Shown here piece after piece: positions 40,105-62,920 of a DNA stretch of 64,000 nt. Numbering within the stretch: position 1 is the first letter of the stretch; each line of letters opens with the position of its first letter. Made by a program: the position numbers and the translations under genes. The notes beneath the pieces are model-generated. The model was given only the letters and a program-made list of their open reading frames with translations. It ran no database searches and was not told the DNA's origin. Origin of the DNA: an uncultured Pseudomonadota bacterium (GTDB lineage: Bacteria; Pseudomonadota; Alphaproteobacteria; Rs-D84); contig CACYHO010000001.1 in assembly GCA_902774285.1 (NCBI GenBank), forward strand, positions 202,077 to 266,076. Direction: 5' to 3'.

Positions 40105-40123
40105 AAAACAAATAATGCTAAAA

Positions 40124-40153
40124 AGTCCCCGATTTATTCGGGGATTTTTTTTG
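40124..40153 (+). terminator. rho-independent terminator after infB (TCCCCG-atttatt-CGGGGA + T-run)
   Basis: 6-bp GC stem followed by TTTTTTTTGTTTTTTT. Confidence 0.55.
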
Positions 40154-40189
40154 TTTTTTTATGCGATATTTGATATAATAAACATTATA

Positions 40190-41071
40190 ATGAGAATGCG
40201 GGCTTTTTTATTATTTTTTACATTTTGTTTTAGTGTGTCACCGATTATGGCAGACACATCTGACACTTTTAATGCAGTTTATGGACAGGATGAAGATTTG
40301 TTGCATTCTGATTTAAACCAAAGTTTAGATCAACAATTACAAATCATTGAAGAACGCGTAAAACAGATAGATCCTGAAATAGTCGAAAAATATGCAAATG
40401 ATGGCAAATATGAAAAAATTTATAACTATCAGCATTTTTTGGCGAATCGTGTTTATGAAACAAAAGCAGAACAGTTTTTGAATAGGTTGCAAGAACATGC
40501 AAAATCCAAAGGGTACAAAGTGACAAAAGCATCAGAAGGGATTGATGATACTTATATTTTGGAGTTGCCAACATATATGAAATCACCAGAATGCTATGAA
40601 AACGGAGATATACGCGATATTCGTAAGTGCGAATACCCAAAAGATTATGATTTTAGTTTGTTAAGTATAAGTGAAAGTGAAATATTTTTTATGTTAGATA
40701 ATATGGAAACCATATATTCGTATTTTGTGATACGTGATGGTTCAGGAAGCGAAATTGGTGATGAAAGTAAAGACGTAGAATCCGGAGAATTCATGTTAGA
40801 ATTGTCAGAGACAAAACTATCACACAAAGAATACTTAGACTTTGAAAACAGACACATATATTGTAATTGGGGTGCTGAAATACCCTATGCTAAAGAATCA
40901 AATAAATGTTCTAAAAACTCTATCCTGACGAAAAAATGTGCAGAAATTATGCAGTTGAGCATGGAAGCATATGATGAATGTTTGGGAGAATATATTTATT
41001 TGCCTGCCACAGATGTTAAATCAGTAATTCATAATTTTCTGTACGATTCGCAAAGGAATAGTATTAAATGA
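40190..41071 (+). CDS. hypothetical secreted protein (293 aa)
   Basis: Start chosen at MRMRAFLLFFTFCFSVSPIMA (signal peptide). Acidic, 8 Cys. No recognised motif. Confidence 0.45.
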   Translation: MRMRAFLLFFTFCFSVSPIMADTSDTFNAVYGQDEDLLHSDLNQSLDQQLQIIEERVKQIDPEIVEKYANDGKYEKIYNYQHFLANRVYETKAEQFLNRLQEHAKSKGYKVTKASEGIDDTYILELPTYMKSPECYENGDIRDIRKCEYPKDYDFSLLSISESEIFFMLDNMETIYSYFVIRDGSGSEIGDESKDVESGEFMLELSETKLSHKEYLDFENRHIYCNWGAEIPYAKESNKCSKNSILTKKCAEIMQLSMEAYDECLGEYIYLPATDVKSVIHNFLYDSQRNSIK

Positions 41072-41886
41072 AAAAAAAGATAGTGTTTTTATTATTGATT
41101 ATTGTTCCGATAATATCGACATCGGTGTCCTATGCAGCAAGTCAAAATACAACAGATGAGATACAAGAACAAGATTTAAAAAGCATGCTTGATAAAATTT
41201 GTGAAAGAGGTGGTTGTTCTGTTGAAAGTGTTAAACAAATGGACGATGAAGAATTTTTGCTTAATGTATTACAACCTACTGTAAAACTAATAAAACTTAA
41301 ACAAAAATATGAAGCGGCGAAAGAAAAAGAACAATCTCTTGCCAACCGGACTTTAACGGCGGCAACTGTTGCTGCAACTGGAATCGGTGGTATGGAATTG
41401 GCTATGGGGCTTTCTGAACAAAAGGCCGATAAAGAAGCAGATGCCGATATGGCGGCATATATGGCAACAATGCGTTGTACCTATGGTAATAAAAAGCAAG
41501 TAAATGCCGGTCCAGATGAAATAGAATTGCCCGGCGGAAACAATTCGGAATTAATGTCTTTGCGTAATGAATATTTTTCTTTGGCTGCAGACCTGAAAGA
41601 ACGCAAAGAAGCATTAGGTATGGCACCAGGAATTGAATCTGAAGAAATTTTAGATAAAGCCACAAGCGGACTTTACGATGATGAAAATATTGGTACGGAT
41701 TCTGGTGCGTATGCATCCATTTATCGTGCAGAAAATGGTAATGAAACAGATCAGGCAAAGATAGATGAAGAACGCAAGGTATCCAAGAATCGTGTAATTG
41801 GTGGCGGTGTTGCCGCCGGTGCGGGCGTGGTCGGTGGAACCGTTGGTAATGCTGTGATAAACAGAGATAGAAAAACACGTAAATAA
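41068..41886 (+). CDS. hypothetical secreted coiled-coil/glycine-zipper protein (272 aa)
   Basis: Signal peptide. LTAATVAATGIGGMELAMGL and C-terminal VIGGGVAAGAGVVGGTVGNAVI glycine-zipper segments. Same style as the 28195 family. Confidence 0.5.
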   Translation: MKKKIVFLLLIIVPIISTSVSYAASQNTTDEIQEQDLKSMLDKICERGGCSVESVKQMDDEEFLLNVLQPTVKLIKLKQKYEAAKEKEQSLANRTLTAATVAATGIGGMELAMGLSEQKADKEADADMAAYMATMRCTYGNKKQVNAGPDEIELPGGNNSELMSLRNEYFSLAADLKERKEALGMAPGIESEEILDKATSGLYDDENIGTDSGAYASIYRAENGNETDQAKIDEERKVSKNRVIGGGVAAGAGVVGGTVGNAVINRDRKTRK

Positions 41887-43150: not shown

Positions 43151-43831
43151 TTATCGTGCAGGTGTTAACCGAATTTCAACGCGACGATTGGTAAGGCGAC
43201 CAATGTCATCTTGGGCTGCGATTGGGCGTGCGGGACCACGTCCGACAATAAACATACGCGATGTCGAAACATTATGTTGTGAAAAATATACACCAACGCG
43301 TTCAGCCATGTCTAAAGATAATGCATAAGACGCGTTTTTATCAGACATTGCATCTGTGTATCCTGCGATTTCCATAAATGTAGCATTATATTTATTCAAT
43401 ATTTTTGAAATGGTTTTAAGTGTATCGGCACCATCCGCAGATATATCTGCAACAGATTGATTCATAATGCTATCGCGAACCAATATCACAACAACATCTG
43501 TGCCGGCGCGCTGAACAGAAATGCCAGGCTTGCGTAATGCATCATACAATTCGTATTCCAAGCCCGCCATATAATTTACCAACACGGCATTATCTATTGC
43601 ATTTTTATCACCATATTGCATTTTTTCAGATAGTTCACCAGTTTGTGTTATAACTTTGCCACCGTGTCCCATATATACAGGCATCTTTGCAATGCGGGCT
43701 GTTTCTGTCATATCCATAAAGCTGGCCCCGTAAAGATGTTGTTGCCATGTGTTTCGTTCAGGACTGTGGTATTGCAGGCATCCTGTCAATGTAAAACACA
43801 AACCAATAAAAATTATTCTTTTAAAATTCAT
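43151..43831 (-). CDS. OmpA-like domain lipoprotein
   Basis: Lipobox LTGC. C-terminal OmpA/MotB-like motif IAGYTDAMSDKNASYALSLDMAERV...RRVEI. 226 aa. Confidence 0.7.
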   Translation of the reverse strand: MNFKRIIFIGLCFTLTGCLQYHSPERNTWQQHLYGASFMDMTETARIAKMPVYMGHGGKVITQTGELSEKMQYGDKNAIDNAVLVNYMAGLEYELYDALRKPGISVQRAGTDVVVILVRDSIMNQSVADISADGADTLKTISKILNKYNATFMEIAGYTDAMSDKNASYALSLDMAERVGVYFSQHNVSTSRMFIVGRGPARPIAAQDDIGRLTNRRVEIRLTPAR

Positions 43832-43834
43832 ATT

Positions 43835-44290
43835 TTATTTTGCAAAAAATGATATTGTATTGTCGCCTGTTTTTAAACAATAAGATGCATCGCTTGAATC
43901 ATATCCGTTAACACTTATATGTGTTGTCCAATCAAATTTCTTGGTTGTAAAATAAGCACATTCATCAAATGTTAAATCAACCAAATTGATTGAAAATTCT
44001 GTGCCATTAAAATTACTTGTCACAGACCAAGCGTTACCACCCGCAGGTGCTTTGTCGTTCGTTAATGCACCGGCTTCAATCAAGAAGCCAACTGATACAG
44101 GTGTGTATCCAGAATATTCTAAAAGTGTTTTTGTTTTTGTTGCGATGTTTTCTAATTCTGTTGACGCAATTAAACGTTTTTGTTTCGCGTTTGTAGAATT
44201 ATATATTGCATAAGTCCCGGCAACCATAATTGCACTAATAGCGAGTACCCCGATAATTTCAATTAATGAACGCCCTGATTGTTCCCTCAT
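43835..44290 (-). CDS. type IV pilin-like protein (class III signal peptide, C-terminal disulfide loop)
   Basis: Leader MREQSG, then RSLIEIIGVLAISAIMVAGTYAIY (Glu at +5). A C-terminal Cys pair (FDECAYF...DASYC) resembles the type IVa pilin D-region. 151 aa. Confidence 0.65.
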   Translation of the reverse strand: MREQSGRSLIEIIGVLAISAIMVAGTYAIYNSTNAKQKRLIASTELENIATKTKTLLEYSGYTPVSVGFLIEAGALTNDKAPAGGNAWSVTSNFNGTEFSINLVDLTFDECAYFTTKKFDWTTHISVNGYDSSDASYCLKTGDNTISFFAK

Positions 44291-44305: not shown

Positions 44306-45862
44306 TTATTTAGATATATTAACGATTTCTGCACCTTCGAACAAATCCATTGCACTGGCCACCATCGGATCAGATTCTATTTCTGATTTTGTGTGTTCTG
44401 ATAATGTTTGTTGGTGTGGTGCTTCTTGGATAGATTCAATTGTCCAATCTTTACCGGTTGTTTCTTTTAACCATGATACCAATTTGTGTGAAAAATCTTT
44501 GTCGCCTTTGCGATCGAAATATTTGATTTTTCCATTTTCAAATTCTGTTATTTCAAGATTGGTTGTGTAATAAGAATACAACAATAATTCGCGTGCTTTT
44601 TGCAAAGCGGTTGCCAATTCATCAGAAGTATTTATTTGTATAAATTTTGATTTTTCTGATGTTGTTTGTTCCACTTTCTTGGTTGGCACAACTTGCTGAT
44701 CTTGTTTTAATAATTCCTGGATAGACGGCATATCGGCAATATGCATTAATCTAACAATCAGCATATCGAAACATTGTTTTTGATTGTTTGATGCTTGTAA
44801 TTCTGGAACAGCGGCAACCATAACCTGCCATATTCTGGAAAGCGTATTTAATGAAATATTTTCATTTATCTGTTTAATTGTTTCGCGTTGGTCGGCAGTA
44901 TAAGGTGAAGATGTCACATCTTGTAAGCGTAAAGATGGATACATGCGGGTTGCCCAATGTGTCCATTCCATCATATCGTTTAACAACATTGTCAAATCAG
45001 CACCATTGTTATAGATTTCGTCCAATCTGTTTAATGCCGCATTAACATCGCCTGATAAAACTGTTTTCATAAAATTAACAACTGTTCCGCGATCTGTTCT
45101 TTTTAACATATCTAAAACAGCACCTTCATCAACATGGCCACCTGTTTGGGCGATAGCCTGGTCAAGCAATGAAAGTCCATCGCGAACAGAACCGTCAGCA
45201 GCGCGCGCCAATAATTCATTTGCACCATCAGATAATTCTATTTTTTCTTGTTCTGCAACCCATGCAAAATGTTTTTTTAATGTTTCCACAGGAACACGAG
45301 CCAAATCAAATCTTTGACAACGTGACAATATTGTTACAGGAACTTTTCTTATTTCTGTTGTTGCCAAAATGAAGATAACATGCGCAGGTGGTTCTTCCAA
45401 AGTTTTAAGCAGTGCATTGAAAGCACTGGTAGATAACATATGGACTTCGTCGATGATATAAACTTTATATCTTGCATTTGTTGGACGATAAAGTGCTGCG
45501 TCTAAAATTTCACGCATATTATCAACACCAGTATGTGAAGCAGCGTCAATTTCCATGACATCAATATGTTGACCAGCTGCGATAGCACGACAGTTTTCAC
45601 AAACACCACATGGTTTTGATGTTGCATGATCAGAAGACAAACAATTTAAAGCCTTCGCCAAAATACGTGCGGTACTGGTTTTTCCGGTTCCGCGGATACC
45701 CGTAAAAATATAGGCGTGTGCGATACGTCCGGTGTTAATGGCGGTTGTTAATGTTTTTACTAACACATCTTGACCAATAAGAGATTCAAAATCTTGACTG
45801 CGATATTTGCGGGCTAAAACTGTATAATTAGTATCCATAATGCTTCCTTTGGGTGAAAGCAT
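44306..45862 (-). CDS. dnaX: DNA polymerase III subunit gamma/tau
   Basis: Walker A GIRGTGKTSTARILA, zinc module CGVCENC, and YIIDEVHMLS. 518 aa. Confidence 0.9.
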   Translation of the reverse strand: MLSPKGSIMDTNYTVLARKYRSQDFESLIGQDVLVKTLTTAINTGRIAHAYIFTGIRGTGKTSTARILAKALNCLSSDHATSKPCGVCENCRAIAAGQHIDVMEIDAASHTGVDNMREILDAALYRPTNARYKVYIIDEVHMLSTSAFNALLKTLEEPPAHVIFILATTEIRKVPVTILSRCQRFDLARVPVETLKKHFAWVAEQEKIELSDGANELLARAADGSVRDGLSLLDQAIAQTGGHVDEGAVLDMLKRTDRGTVVNFMKTVLSGDVNAALNRLDEIYNNGADLTMLLNDMMEWTHWATRMYPSLRLQDVTSSPYTADQRETIKQINENISLNTLSRIWQVMVAAVPELQASNNQKQCFDMLIVRLMHIADMPSIQELLKQDQQVVPTKKVEQTTSEKSKFIQINTSDELATALQKARELLLYSYYTTNLEITEFENGKIKYFDRKGDKDFSHKLVSWLKETTGKDWTIESIQEAPHQQTLSEHTKSEIESDPMVASAMDLFEGAEIVNISK

Positions 45863-45902
45863 AGCAAATTAATATACGATTTCAATAAAAAAGAGCCGGA
45901 AT

Positions 45903-46220
45903 TTATTTCAAATTTGTAATAAAATCTGGAAACCCAATTTCTTCGTCTTCGTCTGATTCTTTTGCGTCAGAATTTTCAGCAGATTCAGCGATTTCTTCTG
46001 GAATTGGAGTTTTGTCTTTCGGGTCGCGTTGGGAATCGATTTTAACCTGTTCTTCATTGACAATACGGCCATAATGTTCCGCAGTTTGAAGCAGTCTTTC
46101 GCGTTCTATTTCGTCGCTTGTCTGGCGAGCAAGGTCGATATATTGTTTTCTTTTTTGACGCCATTTATGACAGCGTTGAATCATCTGACCCACAGATGTT
46201 TGATTTTTTTTGTTTGGCAT
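45903..46220 (-). CDS. DUF4167-like small basic/acidic protein
   Basis: QKRKQYIDLARQTSDEIERERLLQTAEHYGRI resembles, from memory, the alphaproteobacterial DUF4167 core (YERYLxLAR...QHAEHY). Acidic C-terminal tail. Confidence 0.4.
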   Translation of the reverse strand: MPNKKNQTSVGQMIQRCHKWRQKRKQYIDLARQTSDEIERERLLQTAEHYGRIVNEEQVKIDSQRDPKDKTPIPEEIAESAENSDAKESDEDEEIGFPDFITNLK

Positions 46221-46345
46221 ATTCTTTCTTTTTATTTTTCAAGGAAATAAACTTTTCAAACAGCAAATTGTTTCACTGTCTGTTCTTCAACAGTGTAAAT
46301 ATTAAAGCATCTTAAAACTGATTGCAATAATTTTTTTCAATTGCT

Positions 46346-47725
46346 ATGCTTAAAGTTGTAGGAGGGAGGCTTTTGCAAAAACAGTCTGGTAATTTTTTAC
46401 TGCAAGCGTTGCTAGCACTGACTTTAGTCTTTGCTTTTATGCCGTTTTTTGCGCGTCGTATTTCTTCGCGCGATATGGCCGCCCAAATGTATGCTGCAAC
46501 AGAACAAATAGAAACAGCGCAATCTGCTGCGCGAATTTATTTGCGTGAAGAAAAAGATAATTTGCCTTATAAAAAGCAAGAAATAAGCAAAGAAAATTTT
46601 GTTAATATATTGGAAAACTATGGTTTGCCACTTGGTTTTGTCCCACAAACACATTTCAATCAGAACATATCTCTGGTGATAAACAAAGATGAAAATAGTT
46701 TTTATGGTTTTATAAATGTAACCGGTGGAAAATTATCGAAAGTGCAAATGGCCGAATTAGCACGCAGAATAGGTTTTTATGCAAAAGTTAACGGAAATAA
46801 TATCGAAGTCGATATACCACTTGATGCAATGTACAGCGATATTGTGTCAAAAAAAGAAACTGGGGAAAATGTTGGTTTTTTATCTGAATTAGATATGAAC
46901 GATAAAAGTGTTGATAAGATAGGCGTTTTATTTGCGCGCAATGGTGAATTTGAAAGCGCGCAATTTAATACATTGTCGCTTTATGGTATTGAAGAAAGTA
47001 GAAAAGATAAAAATAAAATTTCTGATTTATATGCGAATAAAACAGTTTTTCAAAGTGCTGATGGTGGCGCTGCTTTATCCATTTCCCGTGGTGAAATAAC
47101 GACAAGTTCAGCATCGTTGCGTACAGTGTCAAGATTTGGAACAACTGGTGGTTTTGAATCGAATGTTGCAGCGGTATATGATTTTTCTATGTCGGAAGGT
47201 CGTACGGGGTTTAGTGGTCCATCACAATGGTTGGTTCGTGGTTCTGTGCTGGCCGATAATTTTAATTTTAATGTTGATAGATTAGATATAGGTTCGTATC
47301 TTGATGCTTCGCGTGGACAAGATGTTTATATTGATCCAGAAAGTTTGACGTACGCATCAAAAGTAGGTGTTGATGCAAAAAATATATATGCAGCAAATAT
47401 TTCATTGCGCGATCAAACTTCATACGGTTTATTGGATGGTCGTTCTGGGCCTTTGTTAATAGATATAAGACCTGCTGGGACTTCTCTTTTGCCAGATGCA
47501 TATGTTGATGGGATAAATAATGATTCTTTTGAAATTATTGCCGATCCAAAAGACACAACAGGTAAAAAAGTTTCGTGCAGAGACATAATAAGTCAAATTG
47601 ATGTTGTGTATAACAGTAAATCTTTGGCACAGAATATAATTTGTCAGTATGTGTTTTGGCAAAGATTAGAAGCAAGAATAGATATAAAACAATGTTTAAA
47701 AAGTGGGCGAAGTGATTGTATGTAA
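46346..47725 (+). CDS. large pseudopilin/TadE-like protein A (prepilin-type N-terminus; 459 aa)
   Basis: Probable true start is TTG at 46373, 7 nt after GGAGGGAGG, giving leader MQKQSG|NFLLQALLALTLVFAFMPFF. ExAQSAxxxY...NYGLP motif shared with protein C. 4 C-terminal Cys. Confidence 0.5.
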   Translation: MLKVVGGRLLQKQSGNFLLQALLALTLVFAFMPFFARRISSRDMAAQMYAATEQIETAQSAARIYLREEKDNLPYKKQEISKENFVNILENYGLPLGFVPQTHFNQNISLVINKDENSFYGFINVTGGKLSKVQMAELARRIGFYAKVNGNNIEVDIPLDAMYSDIVSKKETGENVGFLSELDMNDKSVDKIGVLFARNGEFESAQFNTLSLYGIEESRKDKNKISDLYANKTVFQSADGGAALSISRGEITTSSASLRTVSRFGTTGGFESNVAAVYDFSMSEGRTGFSGPSQWLVRGSVLADNFNFNVDRLDIGSYLDASRGQDVYIDPESLTYASKVGVDAKNIYAANISLRDQTSYGLLDGRSGPLLIDIRPAGTSLLPDAYVDGINNDSFEIIADPKDTTGKKVSCRDIISQIDVVYNSKSLAQNIICQYVFWQRLEARIDIKQCLKSGRSDCM

Positions 47726-48908
47726 AAAGTATTTTGACAGATTAAATGCAGATATTGCACGCGGTGCAACTTTGACCGAAGTGATTTTGGCAGTTGCTGT
47801 TATAATTGCAGTGTCCCCTTTTATGTATAATCAAATTATTGACATGTCCAATGAATCACAAGATATTGCACGTGCTAATGAGATTGTTAATATACGTGAT
47901 TCTGCTATAAATTATATTCGTATCAATCACGAAAAATGGGATGATACAGTGGAAATAAAATTATCCGATGAAGAATTAAAAAAAATATCTTCTATGGCAC
48001 ACAGTGGATATATTGATAAATATAAAGTTAAAGGGGCTTCTATAAGTGATATATATTTGGCGTTTAATATGGAAAATTCGGATTACAGGGCGGCAAATAT
48101 AGCAAAACAAATCGGCGAAGATGCTGCGGTCGTTCGTGAAGATGGAATTGCTTATTCGCAAAGTTGGGCTGTTTCTGCGCCTGAAGATTTTCATGTTGGC
48201 GATTTGATTTTTAGAATATCTTATGATTTCGAAGGTGCAGATAAATCAAGATTTTTACATCGTGGAACAATGGGTGAAGACAAATTAAATCAAATGCAAA
48301 GAAATTTGCATATGAATAATTTTAATGTGTTTAATACGGCAAAAATTGACGGACTTTCTGCAAAAATTACAGATGTTGATGCAGTGTTTCTTGAATCAGA
48401 TGTTGTGGATGCAAATACTGTTTATTTTACATCTGGGGCAAATATGAATTCGGATAGTGTGACCTTTTCTTCTTTACGTGTGACCGGCGATACAAGTGGT
48501 TTTAGATTAATCAAAGCAGATGTTTTAAATGACGATAAATATACAACAAGTGGAAAGTTGATTGTTGATCGTGCAACAATTGGCAATTCTGTTAATGTTG
48601 CTGGGAATTTAATTTTAAAATCTTCAAGTGGAAGAAGTGTTTCTGGTTTTAGTGGCATATCAATGAATAAACTTTTAACGCCATATTTATCTGCTACAGA
48701 TTTGGTGTTTTTTGAAAATTTTGGTATAACGGTTTCTGGTGAATTATTATTGGCTGGCAAGGCACCTTTGAAAATTGGGAACTGGGCGTTTCCTTCAACA
48801 ACCCCACCATCTTTTTCAAAGTTAACATTAACACGTGCATCTGTTCCACCAACACCGGATGCTGATGAATTTAATAAAATCATAGAAGCAAATTGGAATA
48901 CAAAATAA
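47703..48908 (+). CDS. large pseudopilin/TadE-like protein B (401 aa)
   Basis: ...DIARG|ATLTEVILAVAVIIAVSPF (Glu at +5, Pro at +14/15, as in the TadE-like N-domain). Ser/Thr/Gly-rich beta-repeats shared with C. Overlaps A by 23 nt. Confidence 0.5.
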   Translation: MGEVIVCKKYFDRLNADIARGATLTEVILAVAVIIAVSPFMYNQIIDMSNESQDIARANEIVNIRDSAINYIRINHEKWDDTVEIKLSDEELKKISSMAHSGYIDKYKVKGASISDIYLAFNMENSDYRAANIAKQIGEDAAVVREDGIAYSQSWAVSAPEDFHVGDLIFRISYDFEGADKSRFLHRGTMGEDKLNQMQRNLHMNNFNVFNTAKIDGLSAKITDVDAVFLESDVVDANTVYFTSGANMNSDSVTFSSLRVTGDTSGFRLIKADVLNDDKYTTSGKLIVDRATIGNSVNVAGNLILKSSSGRSVSGFSGISMNKLLTPYLSATDLVFFENFGITVSGELLLAGKAPLKIGNWAFPSTTPPSFSKLTLTRASVPPTPDADEFNKIIEANWNTK

Positions 48909-50221
48909 TGGTAAAGAAACGAAACTTTTTTCATAAAAATACACAACATGGTGGGATGTTGGTGGAATTGATGATGACTATTGCGCTGGCCGCAATAATT
49001 ATTCCGTTTGTATTCCGTTATCAACAAACGGCGGTGTCGCGTGCAAGAAATGTTGCCATAACAAAACAAATGGAAAATGTTCAAAGTGCGCTTGAAAGAT
49101 ATATTGTTGAAAACAAAACAGAATTAATGCGTCCAAAGGGTAAAAATATAACGCGTATAAAAATAACAGATTTAATAAATTATGGTTTGCCAGAATACAT
49201 TGCAGAAACTTATGGCGATGATTATCAATTAAGAATTTTGAAGTCTTCTGACAATAACAATAAATCAACATTGCAAGGAATAGTGCTTTTATCTAATCGT
49301 GAAATATCGCCAATGCGTACACGTGAAATTGTAAATCTTGGTGGTGGTAAATTCGGATTTGTCGAAGGTAATATAACATATGGTGGTTTTGGCGCGTTTC
49401 GTGGTTCTGCCACCGATTTTGGAATAGCAAATACCAAAGGCTTGATTGGAACAACAAATGTAAAACGCGGGAATACGGAATACTTATGGCGTTTGCCGTC
49501 TGAAAATGAAGATGATGCAACGATGCAATCTGCGTTAAATCTGGATGGACACGATATGAAAGGTGTTCGTTTTGTTGATGCAAATAAAGCCCAATTTGAA
49601 GAAAAGTTAAAAGTTGGAAAATTGGATGTTTCAACTTTGGTTTTTGCCAACCGTTCAACGATAGATTCTGTATATTCAACGAACATAGCGGTCGTAAACG
49701 GTGCATTAACAGCAGATTCAAGAAATATGACAGTTAATGGAACTTTGTCTTTGGCAGATTCAGCAAAATTTTCATCTTTTTCAACGAACGATTTATATGT
49801 TAATACATTAACTTTAAGTGGTTTTAGTGTTTCGACAACAGATGGAAAATCTTCCGCATTAAAAATTATTGGTGATATGGATTTAATAATGGGCCGAGTC
49901 AGTGCGACATATGTATCTGTTGGTTATACTGGTTCTGTGACACCGCAATTAAATATTACAGACAGAATACAAGATTCAAAAGATTCTTCGTTTTATTGGG
50001 ATATTAAAAACAGCAAAGCGCGTTTTGTTGATATTAATTCGCCAGAACTTTCGCGTATGGCATCAATCATAATGGCACAAGAATCTGTGTTTGGTACAAT
50101 GGCGACGACTGTATTTGGTGGTGTTGCAGCAAACGCAAATGCAACTGTTGCAGATTATATAAACGCGATAAACAATATGCAGACACAAATACGCGCAAAA
50201 TATGAAATGTTGAATTTATAA
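48893..50221 (+). CDS. large pseudopilin/TadE-like protein C (442 aa)
   Basis: ...NTQHGG|MLVELMMTIALAAIIIPFVF, then ENVQSALERYIVENK...LINYGLPEYI. Long Ser/Thr/Asn/Gly beta-repeat region. Overlaps B by 16 nt. Confidence 0.5.
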   Translation: MEYKIMVKKRNFFHKNTQHGGMLVELMMTIALAAIIIPFVFRYQQTAVSRARNVAITKQMENVQSALERYIVENKTELMRPKGKNITRIKITDLINYGLPEYIAETYGDDYQLRILKSSDNNNKSTLQGIVLLSNREISPMRTREIVNLGGGKFGFVEGNITYGGFGAFRGSATDFGIANTKGLIGTTNVKRGNTEYLWRLPSENEDDATMQSALNLDGHDMKGVRFVDANKAQFEEKLKVGKLDVSTLVFANRSTIDSVYSTNIAVVNGALTADSRNMTVNGTLSLADSAKFSSFSTNDLYVNTLTLSGFSVSTTDGKSSALKIIGDMDLIMGRVSATYVSVGYTGSVTPQLNITDRIQDSKDSSFYWDIKNSKARFVDINSPELSRMASIIMAQESVFGTMATTVFGGVAANANATVADYINAINNMQTQIRAKYEMLNL

Positions 50222-50258
50222 TATTTTGTGATATAAGAATATCAAACGGAGTTATTTT

Positions 50259-50765
50259 ATGAAAATAGTATGTGATTTTTGTAAAACAGAATATGTTTTG
50301 GATCATGTGCCAACCAAGCCTGTTAAGTGTGCTGTATGTGGTCATGTTTGGACACCGCGTGTTCCATTTCGTCACAAAACATTAATAAAGTTTATTGCGG
50401 CACTTTGCGCTTTTATCGCGGCATGTATATTTTCATTGGTTGTGATTGTGAATATGAATACAAAGAAAAATCATCCGCTTGTTACAAAAATAGATGAAAA
50501 AAATATTCACACAGTATTAGACGAAAACGGCAACAATCGTATATTTGTTTCTGGTAATATTACAAATACCACGAACGATATATATGGTTTGCCAAATATC
50601 ATAATTATTTCTTATGATGCTGTTGGTAATGTTTTGTCGCGTCAAACTTTTATGCCACCTGCAACATTACTGGAATCAAAAACAACTGTTACATTTAACC
50701 ATATGTTGTCAGTAGACCCAACAAATGTTAAAAGACTTTCTGTTGAACTAAAGGAATCAAAATGA
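50259..50765 (+). CDS. zinc-ribbon (MJ0042-type) + TM + DUF3426-like protein
   Basis: MKIVCDFCKTEY...KCAVCGHVW double CxxC, one TM helix, then a C-terminal beta-rich domain. This is the common alphaproteobacterial layout. Confidence 0.55.
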   Translation: MKIVCDFCKTEYVLDHVPTKPVKCAVCGHVWTPRVPFRHKTLIKFIAALCAFIAACIFSLVVIVNMNTKKNHPLVTKIDEKNIHTVLDENGNNRIFVSGNITNTTNDIYGLPNIIIISYDAVGNVLSRQTFMPPATLLESKTTVTFNHMLSVDPTNVKRLSVELKESK

Positions 50766-51247
50766 GATTTTTATCGGCAATAATTTTATCTTTGTTTTGT
50801 GCTGCATCTTTTGCAGATACTTCACCTGTGCCACCATCTGTGCCTGTTCCTGCACCAGTTAAACGTGTCAGTGTGTTTTCAACAACTGTTGATTGGGAAG
50901 CGGTGACGGGTTTGGCTTTGCGTCAATATACAGGAACAGTGAAAGGTACGGATAAAAAATTTGTGAAAGATGGTGTGGTATTATATTACCTTGATTCGTT
51001 TCCTTGTTATGGCGAAGCAGACAGTGTTCGTGTATGGTTATCACCAAAGGGAAAAATGTCTGGAAATTTACGCATAGTTTGTGTTTATAAGCCAGATACA
51101 ATTTCTTTTGCATGGCGTAATGCAACAGAAGAAGCGACCCAGGCACGCACTGCAGGAATTTTAACTTGTCCAATTGAAGGAAATCGTAATTTTACGATTG
51201 ATATTTCAAAGTGTGAACAGGGTCCAAAATGGGACGAACGCAGATAA
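50762..51247 (+). CDS. hypothetical secreted protein (161 aa)
   Basis: Signal peptide, Pro-rich stretch PVPPSVPVPAPV, 5 Cys. Confidence 0.4.
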   Translation: MRFLSAIILSLFCAASFADTSPVPPSVPVPAPVKRVSVFSTTVDWEAVTGLALRQYTGTVKGTDKKFVKDGVVLYYLDSFPCYGEADSVRVWLSPKGKMSGNLRIVCVYKPDTISFAWRNATEEATQARTAGILTCPIEGNRNFTIDISKCEQGPKWDERR

Positions 51248-52206
51248 TGGCAGATATAAAAAATTTTTCAGTGAATGAAGAAAATATCGGTGTAAGAATT
51301 GATAAATTTTTATCGATTTGTATGCCTGAATTTTCGCGCAGTGAAATTCAAAAATTCAAAATTGCACGTACCGATGGAAAGGCTTTAAAATTGTCGGACA
51401 AGACAAAACCGGGCGATGAATTTATTGTAGAAATTGCTGAAAAACCAACCGATGTCGCGTATGACAATATTTCAAGTGATTTTGATTTGGAAATTTTATA
51501 CGAAGACGATGATATTATCGTGATTAATAAACCGCGTGGTGTTGTTATGTACCCCAGTGCCGGAAACAAAACAGGGACTTTGGTTCAAAATTTGTTGTCT
51601 TATACACATTTGTCTGCATTGGGTGGGCAAACACGTCCGGGTGTTGTCCATCGTTTGGACAAAGATACCAGTGGTGCGATGGTTTTTGCTAAAAGTGACG
51701 CGGCGTATCGCGGTTTGGTAAAGATTTTTTCTGCGCACGATTTGACGCGTAAATATATTGCTTTTGTTTGGGGTGTGCCGACATGGGGTGGGGCAGAAAT
51801 TACCGGAAATATAGCCCGTTCATCACGCAATCGTCAAAAAATGAGTTTGGTTAAAACAGGTGGCAAACCAGCCCACACAATCGTCAATGTTATGGATGCT
51901 TGGACAAAACCTGGTATTTCGATGTTTAGATGCACGTTGATGACCGGGCGAACACATCAAATCAGGGTGCATTTATCTTCACATGGTTTTCCTGTTTTAT
52001 GTGATCCGCTTTACGGTCGTGAAAAGGGACATATTGGTTCTGTGAAAGATCCAGAATTGCTGGAGTTTTTGAAAAATCATAATGGGCAGATGTTACACGC
52101 AGAAATACTTGAATTTGTGCATCCAATAACCGGTGAAAAAATGCACTTTAAAGCCCATATGCCAGACGACATGATTGAATTGAAAGACATTTTGGACAAT
52201 CAGTAA
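51247..52206 (+). CDS. rluD: 23S rRNA pseudouridine synthase RluD (RluA family, S4 domain)
   Basis: S4-like N-terminus (RIDKFLS), catalytic HRLDKDTSGAMVFAKS, and C-terminal QIRVHL. Start chosen at MADIKNF. Confidence 0.85.
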   Translation: MADIKNFSVNEENIGVRIDKFLSICMPEFSRSEIQKFKIARTDGKALKLSDKTKPGDEFIVEIAEKPTDVAYDNISSDFDLEILYEDDDIIVINKPRGVVMYPSAGNKTGTLVQNLLSYTHLSALGGQTRPGVVHRLDKDTSGAMVFAKSDAAYRGLVKIFSAHDLTRKYIAFVWGVPTWGGAEITGNIARSSRNRQKMSLVKTGGKPAHTIVNVMDAWTKPGISMFRCTLMTGRTHQIRVHLSSHGFPVLCDPLYGREKGHIGSVKDPELLEFLKNHNGQMLHAEILEFVHPITGEKMHFKAHMPDDMIELKDILDNQ

Positions 52207-52291: not shown

Positions 52292-55200
52292 ATGAAAAAC
52301 ATCATCAAAGCACTTAGTTTATTGTCAATTTTTGCCGTGATTCCTGGGGCAATGGCCGCCACTTCGCGTGTAAGTATGATATCGTCACGCACGTCGCCAC
52401 GTTTGCCGTCATTTGCGGGATATATTACGGCGGTTACAAAGGGGATAACAACCACAACGACATCTTCGACGTCTTTGTGGGGTGATGTTGATTGTATCAA
52501 TAATTACACGGATTGTATTACCGCAGAAGATGCGTGTGGTGCGGATTTCGAAGAATGCACAACAAATGTTTTGTTTCATGCCCAAATGCCAAAGTGTTTG
52601 AACGTTTTGACACAATGCAGTGCAACCGGGATTAATTCGCTTTTTGGAACATCGGCGGTAACGGCTTTGTCTAACGTTGATTCTTGGAAAGATGATGCGC
52701 ATAAAGAAGTTGATCGCTATACATACCCATTGGACGGCAGTATTTTGGGACAAAGAATTATCGGTGGTGCAATTGCAAACAGATTGACAACAGAACAATG
52801 TGTCCGTCGTTATACAAACTGTTTGAATCGTGATGATGTTTGTGGTGCTGATTTTGAATTGTGTACATCACAACGTGAATTCAAAAAACAGGCTGTTTTG
52901 TGTGATTCTACATTGGCGCGTTGTGACAATGCTGGCAAAAAAGAATTGTTTGGTTCTGTTGAAAATGCGGCCGCGTTAAAACCATCTGGTGATGATGCAA
53001 GATTGAAATCTATGATTGAAGACGGTCAACAATTGGCGGCAATGAATGCGGTTAAAACATGTCAACGTGTTACCGATAATTGCTTGGTTTCTGCATGTTT
53101 GAATAATCCATGGCGCTGTGTCGAAGGAACCAGTATGCGTAAAATCAGTGCTGCTGATTTCATAGGCAGTGCAACATCTGATGCAAATACAAAAACATCT
53201 ACTATTGGTTTTCAATACAAGAAAGACGATAAAGGTGAATTTGTATTAGATGCTGATAAAAATAAAATACAAGAATTGGTATCTGATGCAGATTTATATG
53301 CATTGACTGGTTCGGATATTCGCAAAAATTTAAAAGCACAATGTTTGGAAACAATCGGTGCGAATAAATATTGCCATATGACATATCGTGAAAAATCCCC
53401 AAATAATAAAGATTTGATGGATATCGATTTACAGGAAGATGTGTTCTCTTTGGCATATGCGGCGCGCAAAGAAATGGTTAACACAAAAATCCAAGAAGAA
53501 TTGAAAAAATTCGATACCAAGGCAAAAGAAGCCTGTGTTGAAACAATTGCATCATGTGCAATGCGTTCTTGCGGTGGCGGTATTGGTTCCGTATGTTATA
53601 AAAGTGCTAAAAGCAGTAGTTCAAAAATAGGTGTAGTAAAATTAAAATCTGATGATTCAGGAATAAATATAAATGGAAAACCGTATAATGAAATTAAATC
53701 TGGATGTGCTGCGATTGTAAATACGGATCAAAATTGTATTTATGCGGCAACAGCATTGAATGATACTGGTTATAATTATTCCTATATAAATGACAAGGCA
53801 TTTGATGCATTGTTTCCAACTTTAACAAAAGGCGGGGATCCGATTGGTGTTGTTGCATATTTGAATTCTCTGTTGGCAACATCTTATAACGATGCAGCAA
53901 TTGAAAATATGAAAAAACAATGTGCAAATACAGCACTTTCTTGTGTGATTGCTATGTGTGGTACAGATTACGAAAATTGTTATCGTAACCGTACAGACGT
54001 TAGATTGGCTGGTGCAGGTTCTTACAATACAGACAGCAGTGAATTCAACAAAAGTATGAATAAGGTTGGTGGTGTCTTAGATTATAACATTGTTACAGGT
54101 TTGTGTTTGAATACAGTTAAAAACGCGTCTTCTTGTGCAGAACATTTGAAATTGGCTGCTGCGGACTGGCGTGATAAAGCAATGTCAGATAGCACAAGCT
54201 GGGCTTCAACAGATGAAGACGGTAAAGTAACAAAATATGGATCTGTGCGTGCAGGATGGTTGGATGCGAATAAAACACAAGCAACTTCTGATAATACAAA
54301 ACTGGTTGGTTGTACAGGAAGTGCAGAACAAGAAAGAAGAAATCAACAATGCGATACTTATACTGTCGCAGAATGTGATTGGATAGATCCAGAAACAGGG
54401 TGTTTGTATGATCAGGAAAAACGTGTAGACATTGGGGAATATGCTTTGTCACAAGCTGGGGAAACATTGTTCCAAGAATTGTTGGCTGACGTTGAACGTG
54501 AAGTTCAGGCAAAATACAATGCTAAACTTACCAAAGAACAAGGTATCTGTTTGGCACAAAACAATGGTGGTATTATGGGAGCAACCGAAAATGGTTCTAC
54601 ATTTATGTGGGTAAAGATGGCTAATAACAAAAAAGTACCAAACACATATAATACCAAGGGGCTTAAAACAACTGATTTCAAAGCATCTAATGATTTGTAT
54701 GGTTCATTCTGTCGTGCACGTATTACATTGACATCAGATGATAAATATATCCAAGATTTATTGGATAATGACAAAGAAAATCTTTCTACTGCATATTTTG
54801 CAGTTGGTGATGCGTTCACATGTGGTTCTTGGATAAGCGATAAAAAACTTGAAGAAATCACAAAGAAAGTTGGTGAAAAAGCACGTAAAGATGCCGGTGA
54901 AGGTTCTACAACAGAAAAAATCGCATATGCATGGGGAACTGTTGCACCTGCATTGGCTGGTTTGGGTGTTGGTTTGGGACTTGGTGAATCTGGCTTGTTG
55001 GGTAAATGGTTGAATAATGCAAGCATTGCCAATGGTGTAACAGGTGACACAGCATATAATAAGAAAACGTGTATAGATTATGCAAAGTATGCAAAGGAAG
55101 AAGCTTCAAAAGTGACAGATGAAGACGATGAAAAGCATATAGCCTTTGCGAAAGTTGCAAAGACATACATTGAGAGTGCAGCTGGCTTGTGCAACAATGT

Positions 55201-55588
55201 TGTCCCTTCTAATAGTGAATACAGAGCTTTATGTAAAATGGATGGTCTTGAAGCGATTGATAAAAAGAACGCCATCCCTCAAGCTGACTTGATAGAAAGT
55301 TTTGCTGATAGAATCACAAAAGCTTGCGAATCTGCAAATGATAGCTTTGTTGTTGGTAAAAATGGTAATATAGCGGCACGCGCTACAATCCCTGTTGTAA
55401 CAACAATAGCTGGTGGTGCTTTGGGTGTCGGTATTACTGCTTCTGTATTAAAGGCTAAGTATGAAGCTGCTGAAAATGAAGCAATTGCAAAATGGATGGA
55501 AGAAATTGGCGATCATATCCAATGCTTCCTGGGCGCCCAAGAACTGGGTTCTTATGGTGACGTGGTAAGCTTCACTATAGATGAATAA
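52292..55588 (+). CDS. giant secreted Cys-rich repeat protein (1098 aa) with C-terminal glycine-zipper segments
   Basis: Signal peptide MKNIIKALSLLSIFAVIPGAMA. Duplicated 6-Cys module C-x3-YT[DN]C-x5-CGADFExCT-x10-C-x6-C...LFG, plus degenerate copies. The module is spelled out in the 52292-55588 finding. GLGVGLGLGESGLLG and IAGGALGVGITASV near the C-terminus. Confidence 0.55.
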   Translation: MKNIIKALSLLSIFAVIPGAMAATSRVSMISSRTSPRLPSFAGYITAVTKGITTTTTSSTSLWGDVDCINNYTDCITAEDACGADFEECTTNVLFHAQMPKCLNVLTQCSATGINSLFGTSAVTALSNVDSWKDDAHKEVDRYTYPLDGSILGQRIIGGAIANRLTTEQCVRRYTNCLNRDDVCGADFELCTSQREFKKQAVLCDSTLARCDNAGKKELFGSVENAAALKPSGDDARLKSMIEDGQQLAAMNAVKTCQRVTDNCLVSACLNNPWRCVEGTSMRKISAADFIGSATSDANTKTSTIGFQYKKDDKGEFVLDADKNKIQELVSDADLYALTGSDIRKNLKAQCLETIGANKYCHMTYREKSPNNKDLMDIDLQEDVFSLAYAARKEMVNTKIQEELKKFDTKAKEACVETIASCAMRSCGGGIGSVCYKSAKSSSSKIGVVKLKSDDSGININGKPYNEIKSGCAAIVNTDQNCIYAATALNDTGYNYSYINDKAFDALFPTLTKGGDPIGVVAYLNSLLATSYNDAAIENMKKQCANTALSCVIAMCGTDYENCYRNRTDVRLAGAGSYNTDSSEFNKSMNKVGGVLDYNIVTGLCLNTVKNASSCAEHLKLAAADWRDKAMSDSTSWASTDEDGKVTKYGSVRAGWLDANKTQATSDNTKLVGCTGSAEQERRNQQCDTYTVAECDWIDPETGCLYDQEKRVDIGEYALSQAGETLFQELLADVEREVQAKYNAKLTKEQGICLAQNNGGIMGATENGSTFMWVKMANNKKVPNTYNTKGLKTTDFKASNDLYGSFCRARITLTSDDKYIQDLLDNDKENLSTAYFAVGDAFTCGSWISDKKLEEITKKVGEKARKDAGEGSTTEKIAYAWGTVAPALAGLGVGLGLGESGLLGKWLNNASIANGVTGDTAYNKKTCIDYAKYAKEEASKVTDEDDEKHIAFAKVAKTYIESAAGLCNNVVPSNSEYRALCKMDGLEAIDKKNAIPQADLIESFADRITKACESANDSFVVGKNGNIAARATIPVVTTIAGGALGVGITASVLKAKYEAAENEAIAKWMEEIGDHIQCFLGAQELGSYGDVVSFTIDE

Positions 55589-56771: not shown

Positions 56772-56803
56772 AAAAAAACGCCCGTTTGGGCGTTTTTTTT
56801 ATT
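56770..56803. terminator. bidirectional terminator (ACGCCCGTTTGGGCGT) between convergent lpxD and the secreted Cys-rich ORF
   Basis: Hairpin flanked by A8 and T8 runs. Confidence 0.6.
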
Positions 56804-57599
56804 TTGGACATGCAGCTGTCATACCAATTACTTTTTGGACATCGGTATTTATTGGAACATTTATTTCGCGTTGCAGACCGTCAGTATATTTATATGTGAA
56901 TTTGGATAATTGAAATTTTGGAACGCTTTCGTACATATCAAGAAATGGTTGTAATAACGAATCAAACCATTGATAGTTTTTACATAAACATGCGTTGCGG
57001 ACATCTGCGACCATTTTGCCATCAACGGTTTTTGAATATTTTGATATGATGTCATTGTCGTCCATAACCAAGCAACGTTTAGTTATGGCGAAATAATTCG
57101 CATCATCTTTTAAAAATTCATATATTTCTTTATCGTCCGCACCATTTTGACGCATTTTATATAATATCCCAGCTGTGCAACATGCTTCACTGGCGTTCAT
57201 TAACATATGATATCTTTGAACCAGTGGTTTCATATATTCATCATTTGCAGAAACAGTTGGGTTTGATAATGCGATTTGTTCCATGTCCCATGCAACTTCA
57301 GAATTAATATGTGGCGCGCGTGGTGCAACAACTATCTTATAAGATGGTTTTTTATACCATACTGCACATTCTTCTGGTGTTTCAAAAGGACAATTATAAT
57401 CGTAATAACAAGTTTTTTCCGTTTCTGTGGCTGATACTGACGGGAATATCCAATTAACTTCGTATTGTGCCGGAACTAATATATCTGTTGATTCTTCGAA
57501 TACCAATTCACAATCTTCGCCAATACATTCAGATGCGCAAACATAATTTACATTTAACGCAAAGGCTAACATCGCCAAAAAAGATATTTTGTTTCTCAT
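56799..57599 (-). CDS. hypothetical secreted Cys-rich protein (266 aa)
   Basis: Start chosen at MRNKISFLAMLAFALNVNYVCA (signal peptide). 14 Cys including CIGEDC, CYYDYNC and EACC. Confidence 0.45.
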   Translation of the reverse strand: MRNKISFLAMLAFALNVNYVCASECIGEDCELVFEESTDILVPAQYEVNWIFPSVSATETEKTCYYDYNCPFETPEECAVWYKKPSYKIVVAPRAPHINSEVAWDMEQIALSNPTVSANDEYMKPLVQRYHMLMNASEACCTAGILYKMRQNGADDKEIYEFLKDDANYFAITKRCLVMDDNDIISKYSKTVDGKMVADVRNACLCKNYQWFDSLLQPFLDMYESVPKFQLSKFTYKYTDGLQREINVPINTDVQKVIGMTAACPK

Positions 57600-57836
57600 A
57601 ATTCTTAATTTTATCATAAAAAAGGTGTGTTTTAAACAAATATTTTTCAAAAAACACATAAATGTTTATATTTTTTTGTTCGATTCGGGGGCGAATCGGG
57701 ACGAACGAATCGTTTTTTTGATGTTTTTTGCAACTATATAAAAAATATTTTGAAAAAAATATATGGGATAAAATGCCGAATTTCTGCGATTTTTTAATTT
57801 TTTTACTTTTTTTGAAAATTATTTTTGAAAAATCGC

Positions 57837-57865: not shown

Positions 57866-58189
57866 AACCGGGCTTTCAAGTTGGCCCTCTGCAAATCTAC
57901 AAAAAGTCAACCCCTGAAATTTCGCGATTAGATCGCAACATTGTTAATAAAAGCAGCTCATCAAAATGATTTTTGATGTATTCAAAAATCTGTTCAAGAA
58001 GAGATATGCAGACAGTTGAATTTGGAATATCCAAACTTTGACTAAGTCAAATGTGCATATCCTAGACAGGTAGTAGGTTAAAATATAACCTCGTTAAAAA
58101 CTTGTCTTGCGAATATATATATGTAAAGACGAACTGATTAAAGTCAGCTTTGTTAAATGCACAGGACTTAAATTACAAGTTTTTTTTAG

Positions 58190-59693
<1,504 letters not shown>

Positions 59694-59804
59694 TAGAGAA
59701 AACCACTTACACGAAAGTGGTCACCCAAATACGACTGTCTGAATATCTCTTTTTGATGATTCTGGTATCAGCAGAACTAATGGCTTGAAATCAGAATATG
59801 TTAT

Positions 59805-59881
59805 GGGTCAGTAGTTCAGTTGGTTAGAATGTCGCTCTGATACAGCGAAGGTCGAAGATTCGAGTTCTTCCTGACCCACCA
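59805..59881 (+). tRNA. tRNA-Ile (anticodon GAT) in 16S-23S spacer
   Basis: GGGTCAGTAGTTCAGTTGGTTAGAATGTCGCTCTGATACAGCGAAGGTCGAAGATTCGAGTTCTTCCTGACCCACCA. Anticodon loop CTGATAC. Confidence 0.9.

Positions 59882-60185: not shown

Positions 60186-62920
<2,735 letters not shown>

Follow-up and report, generated by a model that had tools for sequence, protein, structure and literature searches.

How are three large proteins with prepilin-like N-termini to be interpreted when they are encoded side by side and no pilus assembly genes lie nearby? The question is raised by a gene trio, here called A, B and C, in the chromosome of Candidatus Enterousia (order Rs-D84), an uncultured gut and rumen alphaproteobacterium with a genome of less than 1 Mb. 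This lineage is abundant, and it has been proposed to be partner-dependent (PMC12306168). Almost every database record labels the three proteins "hypothetical". The window examined here is a stretch of 64 kb that contains the trio.

Gene layout and prepilin-type N-termini

The trio consists of conserved, tightly coupled genes on the forward strand, and the ORF list confirms the three maximal frames of the initial annotation: A at 46346-47725 (extending to an ATG at 46346), B at 47703-48908 (to a GTG at 47703) and C at 48893-50221 (to a TTG at 48893). The ribosome-binding site and TTG start proposed for A can be read directly in the sequence, where the Shine-Dalgarno-like AGGAGGGAGG (46360-46369) lies 3 nt 5' of an in-frame TTG at 46373; this start gives a protein of 450 aa (46373-47725), the length at which the majority of its homologues are called. 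With the starts commonest among gene callers, B runs from a GTG at 47712 to 48908 (398 aa) and C from an ATG at 48908 to 50221 (437 aa). On these starts A and B overlap by 14 nt and B and C by 1 nt (TAATG), which bears out the overlaps first described. The genes are translationally coupled, and they are under purifying selection.

All three proteins begin with a short, mostly basic leader that has Gly at -1, followed by a hydrophobic segment of ~20 residues that opens a long alpha1 helix. The leader of A has six residues (MQKQSG/NFLLQ, the slash marking the presumed cleavage point), that of B ends in DIARG/ATLTE, and that of C, MVKKRNFFHKNTQHG/GMLVE, ends in NTQHG. B also carries the motif FLHRGTMGEDKLNQMQRNLHMNNFN. 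The claimed combination of a Gly leader with Glu, or Gln in A, at +5 is conserved far more often than chance would give, in 110 (A, Gly/Gln), 118 (B, Gly/Glu) and 119 (C, Gly/Glu) of 120 homologues, with the amendment that Glu falls at +5 in C if cleavage occurs after the first Gly (HG/GMLVE). Gly(-1) is kept in 94 of 95 distant representatives, and together with Glu(+5) it is nearly invariant in relatives down to <20% identity. The Gln in A does not exclude a pilin role, because loss of Glu5 is known in capping subunits: GspI-J-K and FimU/PilV-W-X complexes cap and prime their filaments, and GspK and PilX/PilK lack this residue. A conserved Pro, placed by the initial annotation about 14 residues into the helix, is in fact at +18 in all three proteins. 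Pfam models give no direct support, since neither N_methyl (PF07963) nor TadE (PF07811) matches A, B or C at E<=1 and T2SSK is likewise unmatched. The N-terminus of the PilV-like profile described below does match the solved type IV pilins PilE1 and geopilin.

Relationship to PilV

Profile comparison places the trio elsewhere than among TadE-like proteins. As judged from their sequences, A, B and C are remote homologues of PilV, which is a minor pilin of type IVb conjugative pili and, through its adhesin C-terminus, chooses recipient cells (PMC9045228). Aligned with hhalign to a PilV-like alignment, C scores 99.7% (E 3.6e-26), B 98.6% (E 1e-15, residues 16-264) and A 94% (E 1.3e-7, residues 1-195), and a local PilV-like HMM gives 127.7, 60.9 and 28.7 bits, respectively; the shared region covers the N-terminal 190-280 residues. 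Run against 1.84 billion representatives, the profile of the C family recovers bona fide PilV proteins. Shufflon_N (PF04917) is present in 20 of its 63 distant matches (best E 1e-105), and one distant match (P0470, locus L050) is a true PilV whose gene closes a complete type IVb pil operon that includes secretin, T2SSE, T2SSF, PilS, SLT and Peptidase_A24. When C was compared by tblastn with 72,556 plasmids, the sole matches were annotated pilV tip-adhesin genes. The PilV signature DYLYR..v.G.P.LN.M.TaidMg.NN..N is carried by C as EYLWRLPSENEDDATMQSALNLDGHDM and by B as RFLHRGTMGEDKLNQMQRNLHMNNFN; in A only a shortened form (VGFLSELDMNDKSVDKIG) is seen. A direct Pfam scan with Shufflon_N finds none of the three at E<=1, the trio being too divergent for it. 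The homology is remote, and A, B and C therefore form a divergent subfamily.

The trio shares with PilV of the IncI1/IncI2 thin pili (R64, R721, TP114) the leader ending in Gly, Glu at +5, the long alpha1 helix and a homologous N-terminal "constant" domain with the motifs AAxxYIxxN...GLP, R.IA..G..G and YLxR...N.M..L.M. In both, the ~400-470 aa also divide into an N-terminal half that is conserved and a C-terminal half that diverges and presumably binds a ligand. A length above 400 aa had been thought unusual for minor pilins, but it is normal here, because PilV family members run to 430-470 aa; the relatives found in this analysis have 430-540 aa. Paralogy within the trio holds for the N-terminal 190-250 residues (pairwise hhalign E 2.5e-6, 3e-5 and 4e-4) and not for the full length. 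Past the helix, A and C resemble each other significantly (ExxQSA..Y...NYGLP; BLASTP E 2e-8), whereas the beta-repeat similarity once seen between B and C is not significant (E 1.1). The C-terminal halves differ from one another, and A has four conserved Cys near its C-terminus.

Unlike plasmid pilV, the Enterousia genes are chromosomal, lie among housekeeping genes and do not close a pilL-V operon; across ~70 loci the trio nowhere takes the last position in a type IVb pil operon. They are also three fixed tandem paralogues, where the plasmids have a single gene whose 3' end is switched by a shufflon. The region 45800-51300 holds short chance-level repeats only, with no sfx-like repeats, and neither rci nor another recombinase was found among the scanned window ORFs. 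Further departures from PilV are the Gln5 of A and the end of C, where a beta-helix and a helical bundle stand in place of the PilV C-terminal segments.

That description of C comes from an AlphaFold (AF2) model, C being the member of the trio for which a structure was modeled. As the initial annotation had anticipated, it contains an N-terminal alpha1 helix and a beta-helix. The alpha1 helix spans 56 residues (13-68, pLDDT 87-90) and is followed by an alpha/beta domain to ~200, with strands at 80-84, 106-114, 120-128, 149-159 and 178-182. A beta-helix of moderate confidence (~222-372, pLDDT 55-79) and three C-terminal helices (379-434) complete the protein, so that its C-terminal half is predicted to be an adhesin-like beta-helix plus helical bundle; the beta-helix hints at a ligand outside the cell. 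A Foldseek search with the model turned up no pilin match of significance. The model did match tapirins, the beta-helix cellulose adhesins of Caldicellulosiruptor, at 11%-16% sequence identity, but there is no sequence homology and tapirins are not themselves pilins; the match is one to a generic beta-helix fold, found also in bactofilins and acyltransferases.

Two other groups of minor subunits invite comparison. CofB, TcpB and LngB, large type IVb minor pilins that prime assembly, exceed 400 aa and are built from an N-terminal pilin-like domain and, after it, C-terminal domains rich in beta structure. The tip location and initiator role proposed for the trio are like theirs, and CofB is placed at the pilus tip in work cited in PMC9045228. 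Neither sequence nor fold similarity to the solved CofB/TcpB structures was found. Like the GspI-J-K and FimU/PilV-W-X tip complexes, the trio has several distinct minor subunits side by side, one of them without Glu5, and it may share their capping and priming role. Unlike the trio, those subunits measure 120-330 aa and their genes lie with or close to assembly genes, and they show no detectable homology to A, B or C.

Gene neighborhood and assembly machinery

The trio belongs to a larger island. Adjoining dnaX, 2 kb upstream of the trio and syntenic with it in most related loci, is a gene on the reverse strand (43835-44290) for a 151-aa type IV pilin-like protein (MREQSG/RSLIEIIGVLAI). It matches N_methyl at E 0.0025 (17.8 bits, under the curated cut-off of 21.2) and, weakly, GspH (E 2e-4); its N-terminus is invariant in 12 aligned orthologues, and it has two invariant Cys (C111 and C138), the canonical disulfide pair. 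It is a candidate major pilin or pseudopilin. Downstream of it by 4 nt, on the same strand (43151-43831), a 226-aa lipoprotein with the lipobox LTGC and an OmpA-type peptidoglycan-binding domain (Pfam OmpA, E 7e-11) trails the pilin gene in essentially every pilin locus, down to 38% pilin identity. Its tie to the island is one of conserved synteny only.

On the other side, a 168-aa ZitP-like protein (50259-50765, forward strand) is encoded 37 nt downstream of C, and it follows C in all loci with coverage. It has an MJ0042/Zn_ribbon_4 zinc finger (E 2e-5), one transmembrane segment and a periplasmic FxLYD/DUF3426-like domain (FxLYD, 25 bits). The same order of zinc-ribbon, transmembrane segment and DUF3426-type domain is seen in Caulobacter crescentus ZitP, which is required through its DUF3426 domain for Cpa pilus biogenesis (PMC5182063). 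Unlike ZitP (311 aa), the window copy is short and reaches the FxLYD model and not DUF3426, for which an orthologue in another locus (L041) scores 29.1 bits, over the cut-off of 27.7. ZitP partners Tad/Cpa pili and CpaM, but neither is seen in the loci here, and the ZitP-like protein may be functionally linked to the trio, as its synteny suggests. A 161-aa secreted protein of no known family follows (50762-51247, forward strand); its gene overlaps the ZitP-like gene at its start and rluD at its end and is always syntenic with both. The order A-B-C-ZitP-like-p161-RluD, beside dnaX-pilin-OmpA, recurs in ~37 GTDB species and ~30 further metagenome loci, so that the whole island is syntenic in ~70 related loci, and the three-gene cassette reappears in the same order in more distant lineages. 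The initial annotation had missed the small pilin gene and the ZitP-like nature of the zinc-ribbon gene, and its assignment of a 105-aa ORF to DUF4167 was not confirmed. The window also encodes many secreted Cys-rich proteins.

The lack of pilB, pilC, pilD, secretin and tad/cpa genes in the 64-kb window, noted from the start, stands: Pfam scans (of nearly all ORFs of at least 120 aa), motif scans and tblastn agree. Searches of the window, of the 10 kb on its left side and of 133 related loci (1.66 Mb in total) turned up no gene for a pilus ATPase, a platform protein, a prepilin peptidase or a secretin.

Alternative readings and implications

The reading we prefer, with a probability of roughly 0.6, is that A, B and C are three diverged PilV-type paralogues acting as type IVb tip adhesins. 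The trio probably forms a sticky pilus tip, because its members are distant relatives of the PilV adhesin subunit. A prepilin peptidase encoded elsewhere would cleave after the Gly of each leader, and the three proteins would then join through their alpha1 helices in a heterotrimeric priming or tip complex, topped by A, which resembles capping subunits of the GspK and PilX type in lacking Glu5. Below this complex the 151-aa pilin would polymerize, and the C-terminal domains would be displayed at the filament tip, where a partner cell, mucus or a glycan of the host could be their target. Three fixed paralogues would fill the role of the shufflon-switched C-termini of plasmid PilV. Against this reading weigh the lack of assembly genes in the scanned loci, the Pfam scans that miss the trio with N_methyl and Shufflon_N, the Gln5 of A, the Foldseek result and the Rs-D84 genome survey cited below. 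Of the earlier proposal, in which a type IV-like filament carries these proteins as tip or adhesin subunits, this keeps the main part, supported by the PilV homology and the model of C, and drops the TadE-like N-domain.

The failure to find assembly genes in the window or in the related loci is also what would be expected if the machinery had been lost and the proteins, though derived from pilins, were now fixed in the inner membrane by the N-terminal helix as bitopic proteins of the periplasm or envelope. They might then help to organize the envelope or set polarity, perhaps together with the OmpA-type lipoprotein and the ZitP-like protein. The setting among dnaX, rluD and lpxD, the pilus-independent polarity roles that ZitP also has, and a genome survey of Rs-D84 that mentions type IV pili solely in a different lineage (PMC12306168) fit this idea. 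Without cleavage by a peptidase and packing into a filament, however, a near-invariant Gly(-1)/Glu(+5) is difficult to account for, the island also preserves a distinct small pilin and its disulfide pair, the adhesin-like beta-helix of C points outward, and a genome of less than 1 Mb would rarely retain four useless pilin genes under purifying selection; we regard this as possible but unlikely. Type II secretion minor pseudopilins, analogues of GspH-K capping a short periplasmic pseudopilus that expels exoproteins, could lack Glu5 in one member as GspK does, and some database entries do call C homologues "type II secretion system protein"; the neighboring pilin has its weak GspH match, and the Cys-rich proteins of the window could serve as substrates. 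That name is given generically to proteins with the N-terminal motif, however, and the homology leads to PilV and not to GspH/I/J/K, with Pfam T2SSG as well as T2SSK unmatched. There are no gspD/E/F genes among the loci scanned and a beta-helix of this kind is foreign to known pseudopilins, making such a role quite improbable.

Among Alphaproteobacteria, type IV filaments are usually Tad/Cpa (type IVc) pili; the TadG proteins, too, are large, and in Caulobacter the making of Cpa pili depends on the family to which the adjoining ZitP-like gene belongs. For TadE/TadG-like pseudopilins (PF07811, PF13400) one would nonetheless expect something other than significant homology confined to PilV/Shufflon_N, a Pro off the TadE position, a 151-aa neighbor that is not Flp-like and a window where cpa/tad genes are not seen; the idea is largely refuted at the sequence level, and we give it very little weight. 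That the trio represents remnants or domesticated copies of phage tail-fiber or receptor-binding proteins is scarcely credible: neither phage genes nor a composition shift surround it, it keeps the same gene order among core genes in ~70 loci, tail fibers do not have prepilin-like N-termini, and Foldseek found nothing significant among viral structures.

Enterousia and its Rs-D84 relatives have genomes of less than 1 Mb, lack both respiration and complete glycolysis and are possibly partner-dependent. A more speculative and rather unlikely proposal is that they have no canonical type IV pilus, type II secretion or Tad system, and that the deeply conserved island encodes a minimal or unconventionally assembled attachment organelle. 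Such an organelle would comprise the three PilV-like giants, the small pilin, the OmpA-type lipoprotein and the ZitP-like protein, and would let the cell cling to a partner or to the surface of a host. Its counterpart outside the Alphaproteobacteria would be the pili used by epibionts of the Patescibacteria.

With the trio, the PilV/Shufflon_N family extends from conjugative plasmids to a chromosomal form with three paralogues, fixed rather than varied by DNA inversion. If the machinery is truly absent, a harder question follows, namely how prepilin-like proteins are used without assembly genes. No attachment apparatus has been described before for Ca. Enterousia. The trio, which the homology and the model of C mark as PilV-type adhesin pilins, is kept together with a small pilin under purifying selection throughout the lineage, and it offers a concrete candidate for how Enterousia cells attach to a partner or host.

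Gene layout and N-termini of the trio

The three adjacent forward-strand genes at 46346–50221 (A, B, and C) encode translationally coupled, conserved prepilin-type proteins that have a PilV-like N-terminal domain in common and differ in their C-terminal halves. ORF A (46346–47725) probably starts at TTG 46373, 3 nt past AGGAGGGAGG, the ribosome binding site already proposed in the initial annotation, and its homologues, mostly 450 aa long, agree with this start. ORF B (47703–48908) probably starts at GTG 47712 and ORF C (48893–50221) at ATG 48908, with homologues of mostly 398 aa and of 437 aa, respectively. With these starts the end of A overlaps B by 14 nt and the stop codon of B overlaps C by 1 nt (TAATG), in keeping with the coupling suggested earlier. 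A zinc-ribbon gene follows C after 37 nt and overlaps the gene for a 161-aa secreted protein (p161), which itself overlaps rluD; with these overlaps and the 37-nt gap, the six genes have the close packing of a single operon. Promoter and terminator consensus scans performed no better than on shuffled sequence.

In A, the leader MQKQSG is followed after its Gly by the hydrophobic stretch NFLLQALLALTLVFAFMP; in B, a leader ending in DIARG precedes ATLTEVILAVAVIIAVSP; and in C, a leader ending in NTQHG precedes GMLVELMMTIALAAIIIP, where Glu falls at +5 only with cleavage after the first Gly. The Gly/Glu pair is present in 119/120 homologues of C and 118/120 of B, and a Gly/Gln pair in 110/120 of A. 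Among 95 distant representatives with a recognizable N-terminus, Gly is found in 94 and Glu in 92. The motif residues first noticed in the three N-termini are nearly invariant among homologues.

Family assignment and predicted structure

Scanning with Pfam and NCBIfam, which included the N_methyl, TadE, and GspK searches that had been advised, gave no direct match of A, B, or C to N_methyl, TadE, T2SSK, or Shufflon_N at E ≤ 1. Searching 1.84 billion representatives with a C-family profile at a cutoff of E ≤ 1e-3 retrieved 198 proteins, the distant ones aligned over their N-terminal 220–300 residues only, and many with canonical pilin N-termini. Among 63 distant proteins, Pfam assigns 20 to PF04917 (Shufflon_N, the N-terminal constant region of PilV; best E 1e-105) and three to N_methyl, and it finds a phage tail Collar domain in three. 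One of the 20, P0470, is a genuine PilV, encoded last in a type IVb pil operon (TcpQ-like, PilM, secretin, PilO, T2SSE ATPase, T2SSF platform, PilS pilin, SLT, and Peptidase_A24). Aligned by hhalign with a set of 12 PilV-like proteins, C scores 99.7% (E 3.6e-26, residues 11–280), B 98.6% (E 1e-15, residues 16–264), and A 94% (E 1.3e-7, residues 1–195), and a local PilV-like HMM gives 127.7, 60.9, and 28.7 bits, respectively. When C was compared by tblastn with 72,556 plasmids, only three matches were seen (E 2e-5 to 7e-3), all annotated [quoted passage not shown]. By eye, the trio and PilV have the motifs AAxxYIxxN...(N/A)(Y/G)(G/Y)LP, R.IA..G..G, and YLxR....N.M..L.M..N in common. The agreement of profile, HMM, tblastn, and motifs indicates that the trio is a divergent, previously unlabelled branch of PilV. 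The PilV-like relatives from the profile search are 430–540 aa long, so that members of 400 aa and more, at first thought unusual, are of normal size for the family. Six other proteins, on short contigs only (P0461, P0463, P0471, P0475, P0476, and P0481; 900–1137 aa), join a PilV-like N-terminal domain (QKGSMMVEALAMLGL...) to very long C-terminal extensions.

By BLASTP and hhalign, homology among A, B, and C is confined to the N-terminal 190–250 residues; the description of three paralogues holds for this part and fails for the C-terminal halves, which have no mutual sequence relation, and full-length paralogy was rejected. The beta-repeats said to be common to B and C are not significantly similar (BLASTP E 1.1). 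Four conserved Cys lie near the C-terminus of A. For C, the one protein modelled, AF2 reached a pLDDT of 75 with 55 diverse sequences and 46 with 32 close homologues alone. The model has an alpha1 helix of 56 residues (13–68), an alpha/beta domain up to about residue 200 (pLDDT ~75–90), a beta-rich stretch at 222–372 of moderate pLDDT (55–79), and three helices within 379–434 (pLDDT 80–89); the model gives C an adhesin-like C-terminal half. Sequence searches of the PDB yielded no solved structure related to the globular part, and Foldseek gave no significant match for the model in PDB or BFVD.

A conserved chromosomal island

Genes for a small pilin, for an OmpA-type lipoprotein, and for a ZitP-like protein accompany the trio in one conserved island. 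The pilin gene (43835–44290, −), overlooked in the initial annotation, encodes a 151-aa type IV pilin-like protein beginning MREQSG and then RSLIEIIGVLAI (N_methyl E 0.0025, with a weak GspH match), with two invariant Cys and a G/RSLIE junction with an unusual Arg at +1. The OmpA-domain lipoprotein gene (43151–43831, −) lies 4 nt past it. This pair stands directly downstream of dnaX, where ybaB–recR usually stands, and persists at identities as low as 38%, including in loci without the trio (L118, L119, L126, and L130). The zinc-ribbon gene (50259–50765, +) encodes an MJ0042/Zn_ribbon_4 finger, a TM segment, and an FxLYD domain, and its orthologue in the deep-branching Enterousia locus L041 (11338–11856) matches DUF3426 at 29.1 bits, against a Pfam threshold of 27.7. 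Caulobacter ZitP has the same architecture of Zn ribbon, TM segment, and DUF3426/FxLYD; its periplasmic DUF3426 domain is needed for Cpa pilus biogenesis (PMC5182063). In the distant lineage L048 the unit of ZitP-like gene, p161, and rluD is kept apart from the pilin trio.

All 39 GTDB loci that cover the region keep the order A–B–C–ZitP-like–p161–RluD, even where C is only 46% identical. Scanning with the small pilin added 80 metagenome loci, and in ~30 of the longer ones the dnaX–pilin–OmpA block still faces the trio, down to 34%–50% identity of A. The trio, at 46%–92% identity versus 71%–97% for RluD and dnaX, diverges only somewhat faster. Two remoter lineages (L046, 7220–11470; L048, 7265–11398) have A-like, B-like, and C-like genes in the same order in other genomic contexts, with products of 469/455/489 aa and 450/449/465 aa. 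Residue +5 of the first product is Glu in L046 versus Gln in L048 and Enterousia, so that the first subunit has lost Glu5 in particular lineages only.

The window is chromosomal, encoding IF-2, NusA, dnaX, LptD/F/G, MutS, ParAB, PNPase, and MreB together with a complete rRNA operon (58189–63139), and identical proteins occur on a 216.8-kb metagenome scaffold and a 532-kb contig. The MAGs that carry homologues are of gut and rumen origin and are labelled Alphaproteobacteria bacterium or Candidatus Enterousia. Enterousia, a member of the uncultured order Rs-D84, has genomes below 1 Mb without a TCA cycle, respiration, or full glycolysis, and has been proposed to depend on partner organisms (PMC12306168).

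Several other products in the window lack a family match. Matching neither Pfam nor NCBIfam, a Cys-rich protein of 1098 aa that is secreted or membrane-bound (52292–55588, +) keeps its syntenic place in most loci at 36%–66% identity, versus 80%–95% for its neighbours, a fast divergence expected of a surface protein under diversifying pressure. Five signal-peptide proteins (28195–28596, 28607–30121, 40040–41071, 41068–41886, and 56799–57659) match no family; Cys or coiled coil is abundant in some, and a Gly/Ala-rich hydrophobic segment is common to some (e.g., 28195, 28607, and 41068). This density of family-less exported proteins is high for so small a genome. A 105-aa basic/acidic protein (45903–46220, −), upstream of dnaX, is found between dnaX and A in nearly all loci at 56%–91% identity; its earlier label, DUF4167, finds no Pfam (precomputed) or NCBIfam match. 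Neither Pfam nor NCBIfam matches the 249-aa ORF (30150–30899, −) located between rlmN and the genes for exported proteins, and its product lacks a signal peptide.

Assembly machinery and possible function

As initially reported, the window holds no pilus assembly genes: none was found by Pfam among ~40 of its ORFs, and neither regular expressions for GspE Walker A and PilD motifs nor tblastn with the type IVb ATPase, platform, peptidase, secretin, and PilS of L050, a locus with a genuine PilV operon, gave a match in 133 loci totalling 1.66 Mb. None occurs in the contexts of distant relatives, upstream of the deep-branching Enterousia locus, or in the flanks of the source scaffold, window and flanks together being a fraction of a ~0.9-Mb genome. 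The one lineage for which a survey of Rs-D84 mentions type IV pili is unrelated to this one (PMC12306168), which is a hint, though no test, that machinery is absent. The main rival explanation is accordingly that the machinery has been lost and the trio are membrane-anchored pilin derivatives; against this, Gly(−1) and Glu(+5) are near-invariant, and we consider it unlikely.

That the trio are type II secretion pseudopilins is a less probable reading again, T2SSK being among the families unmatched. The TadE-like N-domain initially proposed gives way to homology with PilV: the absence of a TadE match and the position of the conserved Pro, at +18 in A, B, and C rather than ~14 residues in, speak against a TadE/TadG assignment, which was rejected, and Tad pseudopilins are very improbable. 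A phage origin is more improbable still; Collar domains occur in three distant relatives, and a tail-fibre origin of the trio was rejected.

The initial observation was thus largely correct, and its pilin-type tip or adhesin subunits are backed in the more specific form of PilV-like proteins. For these, a prepilin peptidase encoded elsewhere would process A, B, and C, which may join as a heterotrimer that primes or tips a filament made of the 151-aa pilin. A could cap this heterotrimer, as capping subunits such as GspK and PilX also lack Glu5. A partner cell or a glycan of the host might be what the exposed C-terminal domains bind; in plasmid PilV, the C-terminus is the adhesin that chooses target cells (PMC9045228). 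A repeat search around the trio found no meaningful inverted or direct repeats of a shufflon, and no recombinase is among the window ORFs scanned; three fixed paralogues may here replace the alternative C-termini of a shufflon. The whereabouts of the assembly system for the PilV-like trio is one point of interest; the other is that these proteins belong to an abundant, uncultured, genome-reduced gut lineage without a known attachment apparatus.
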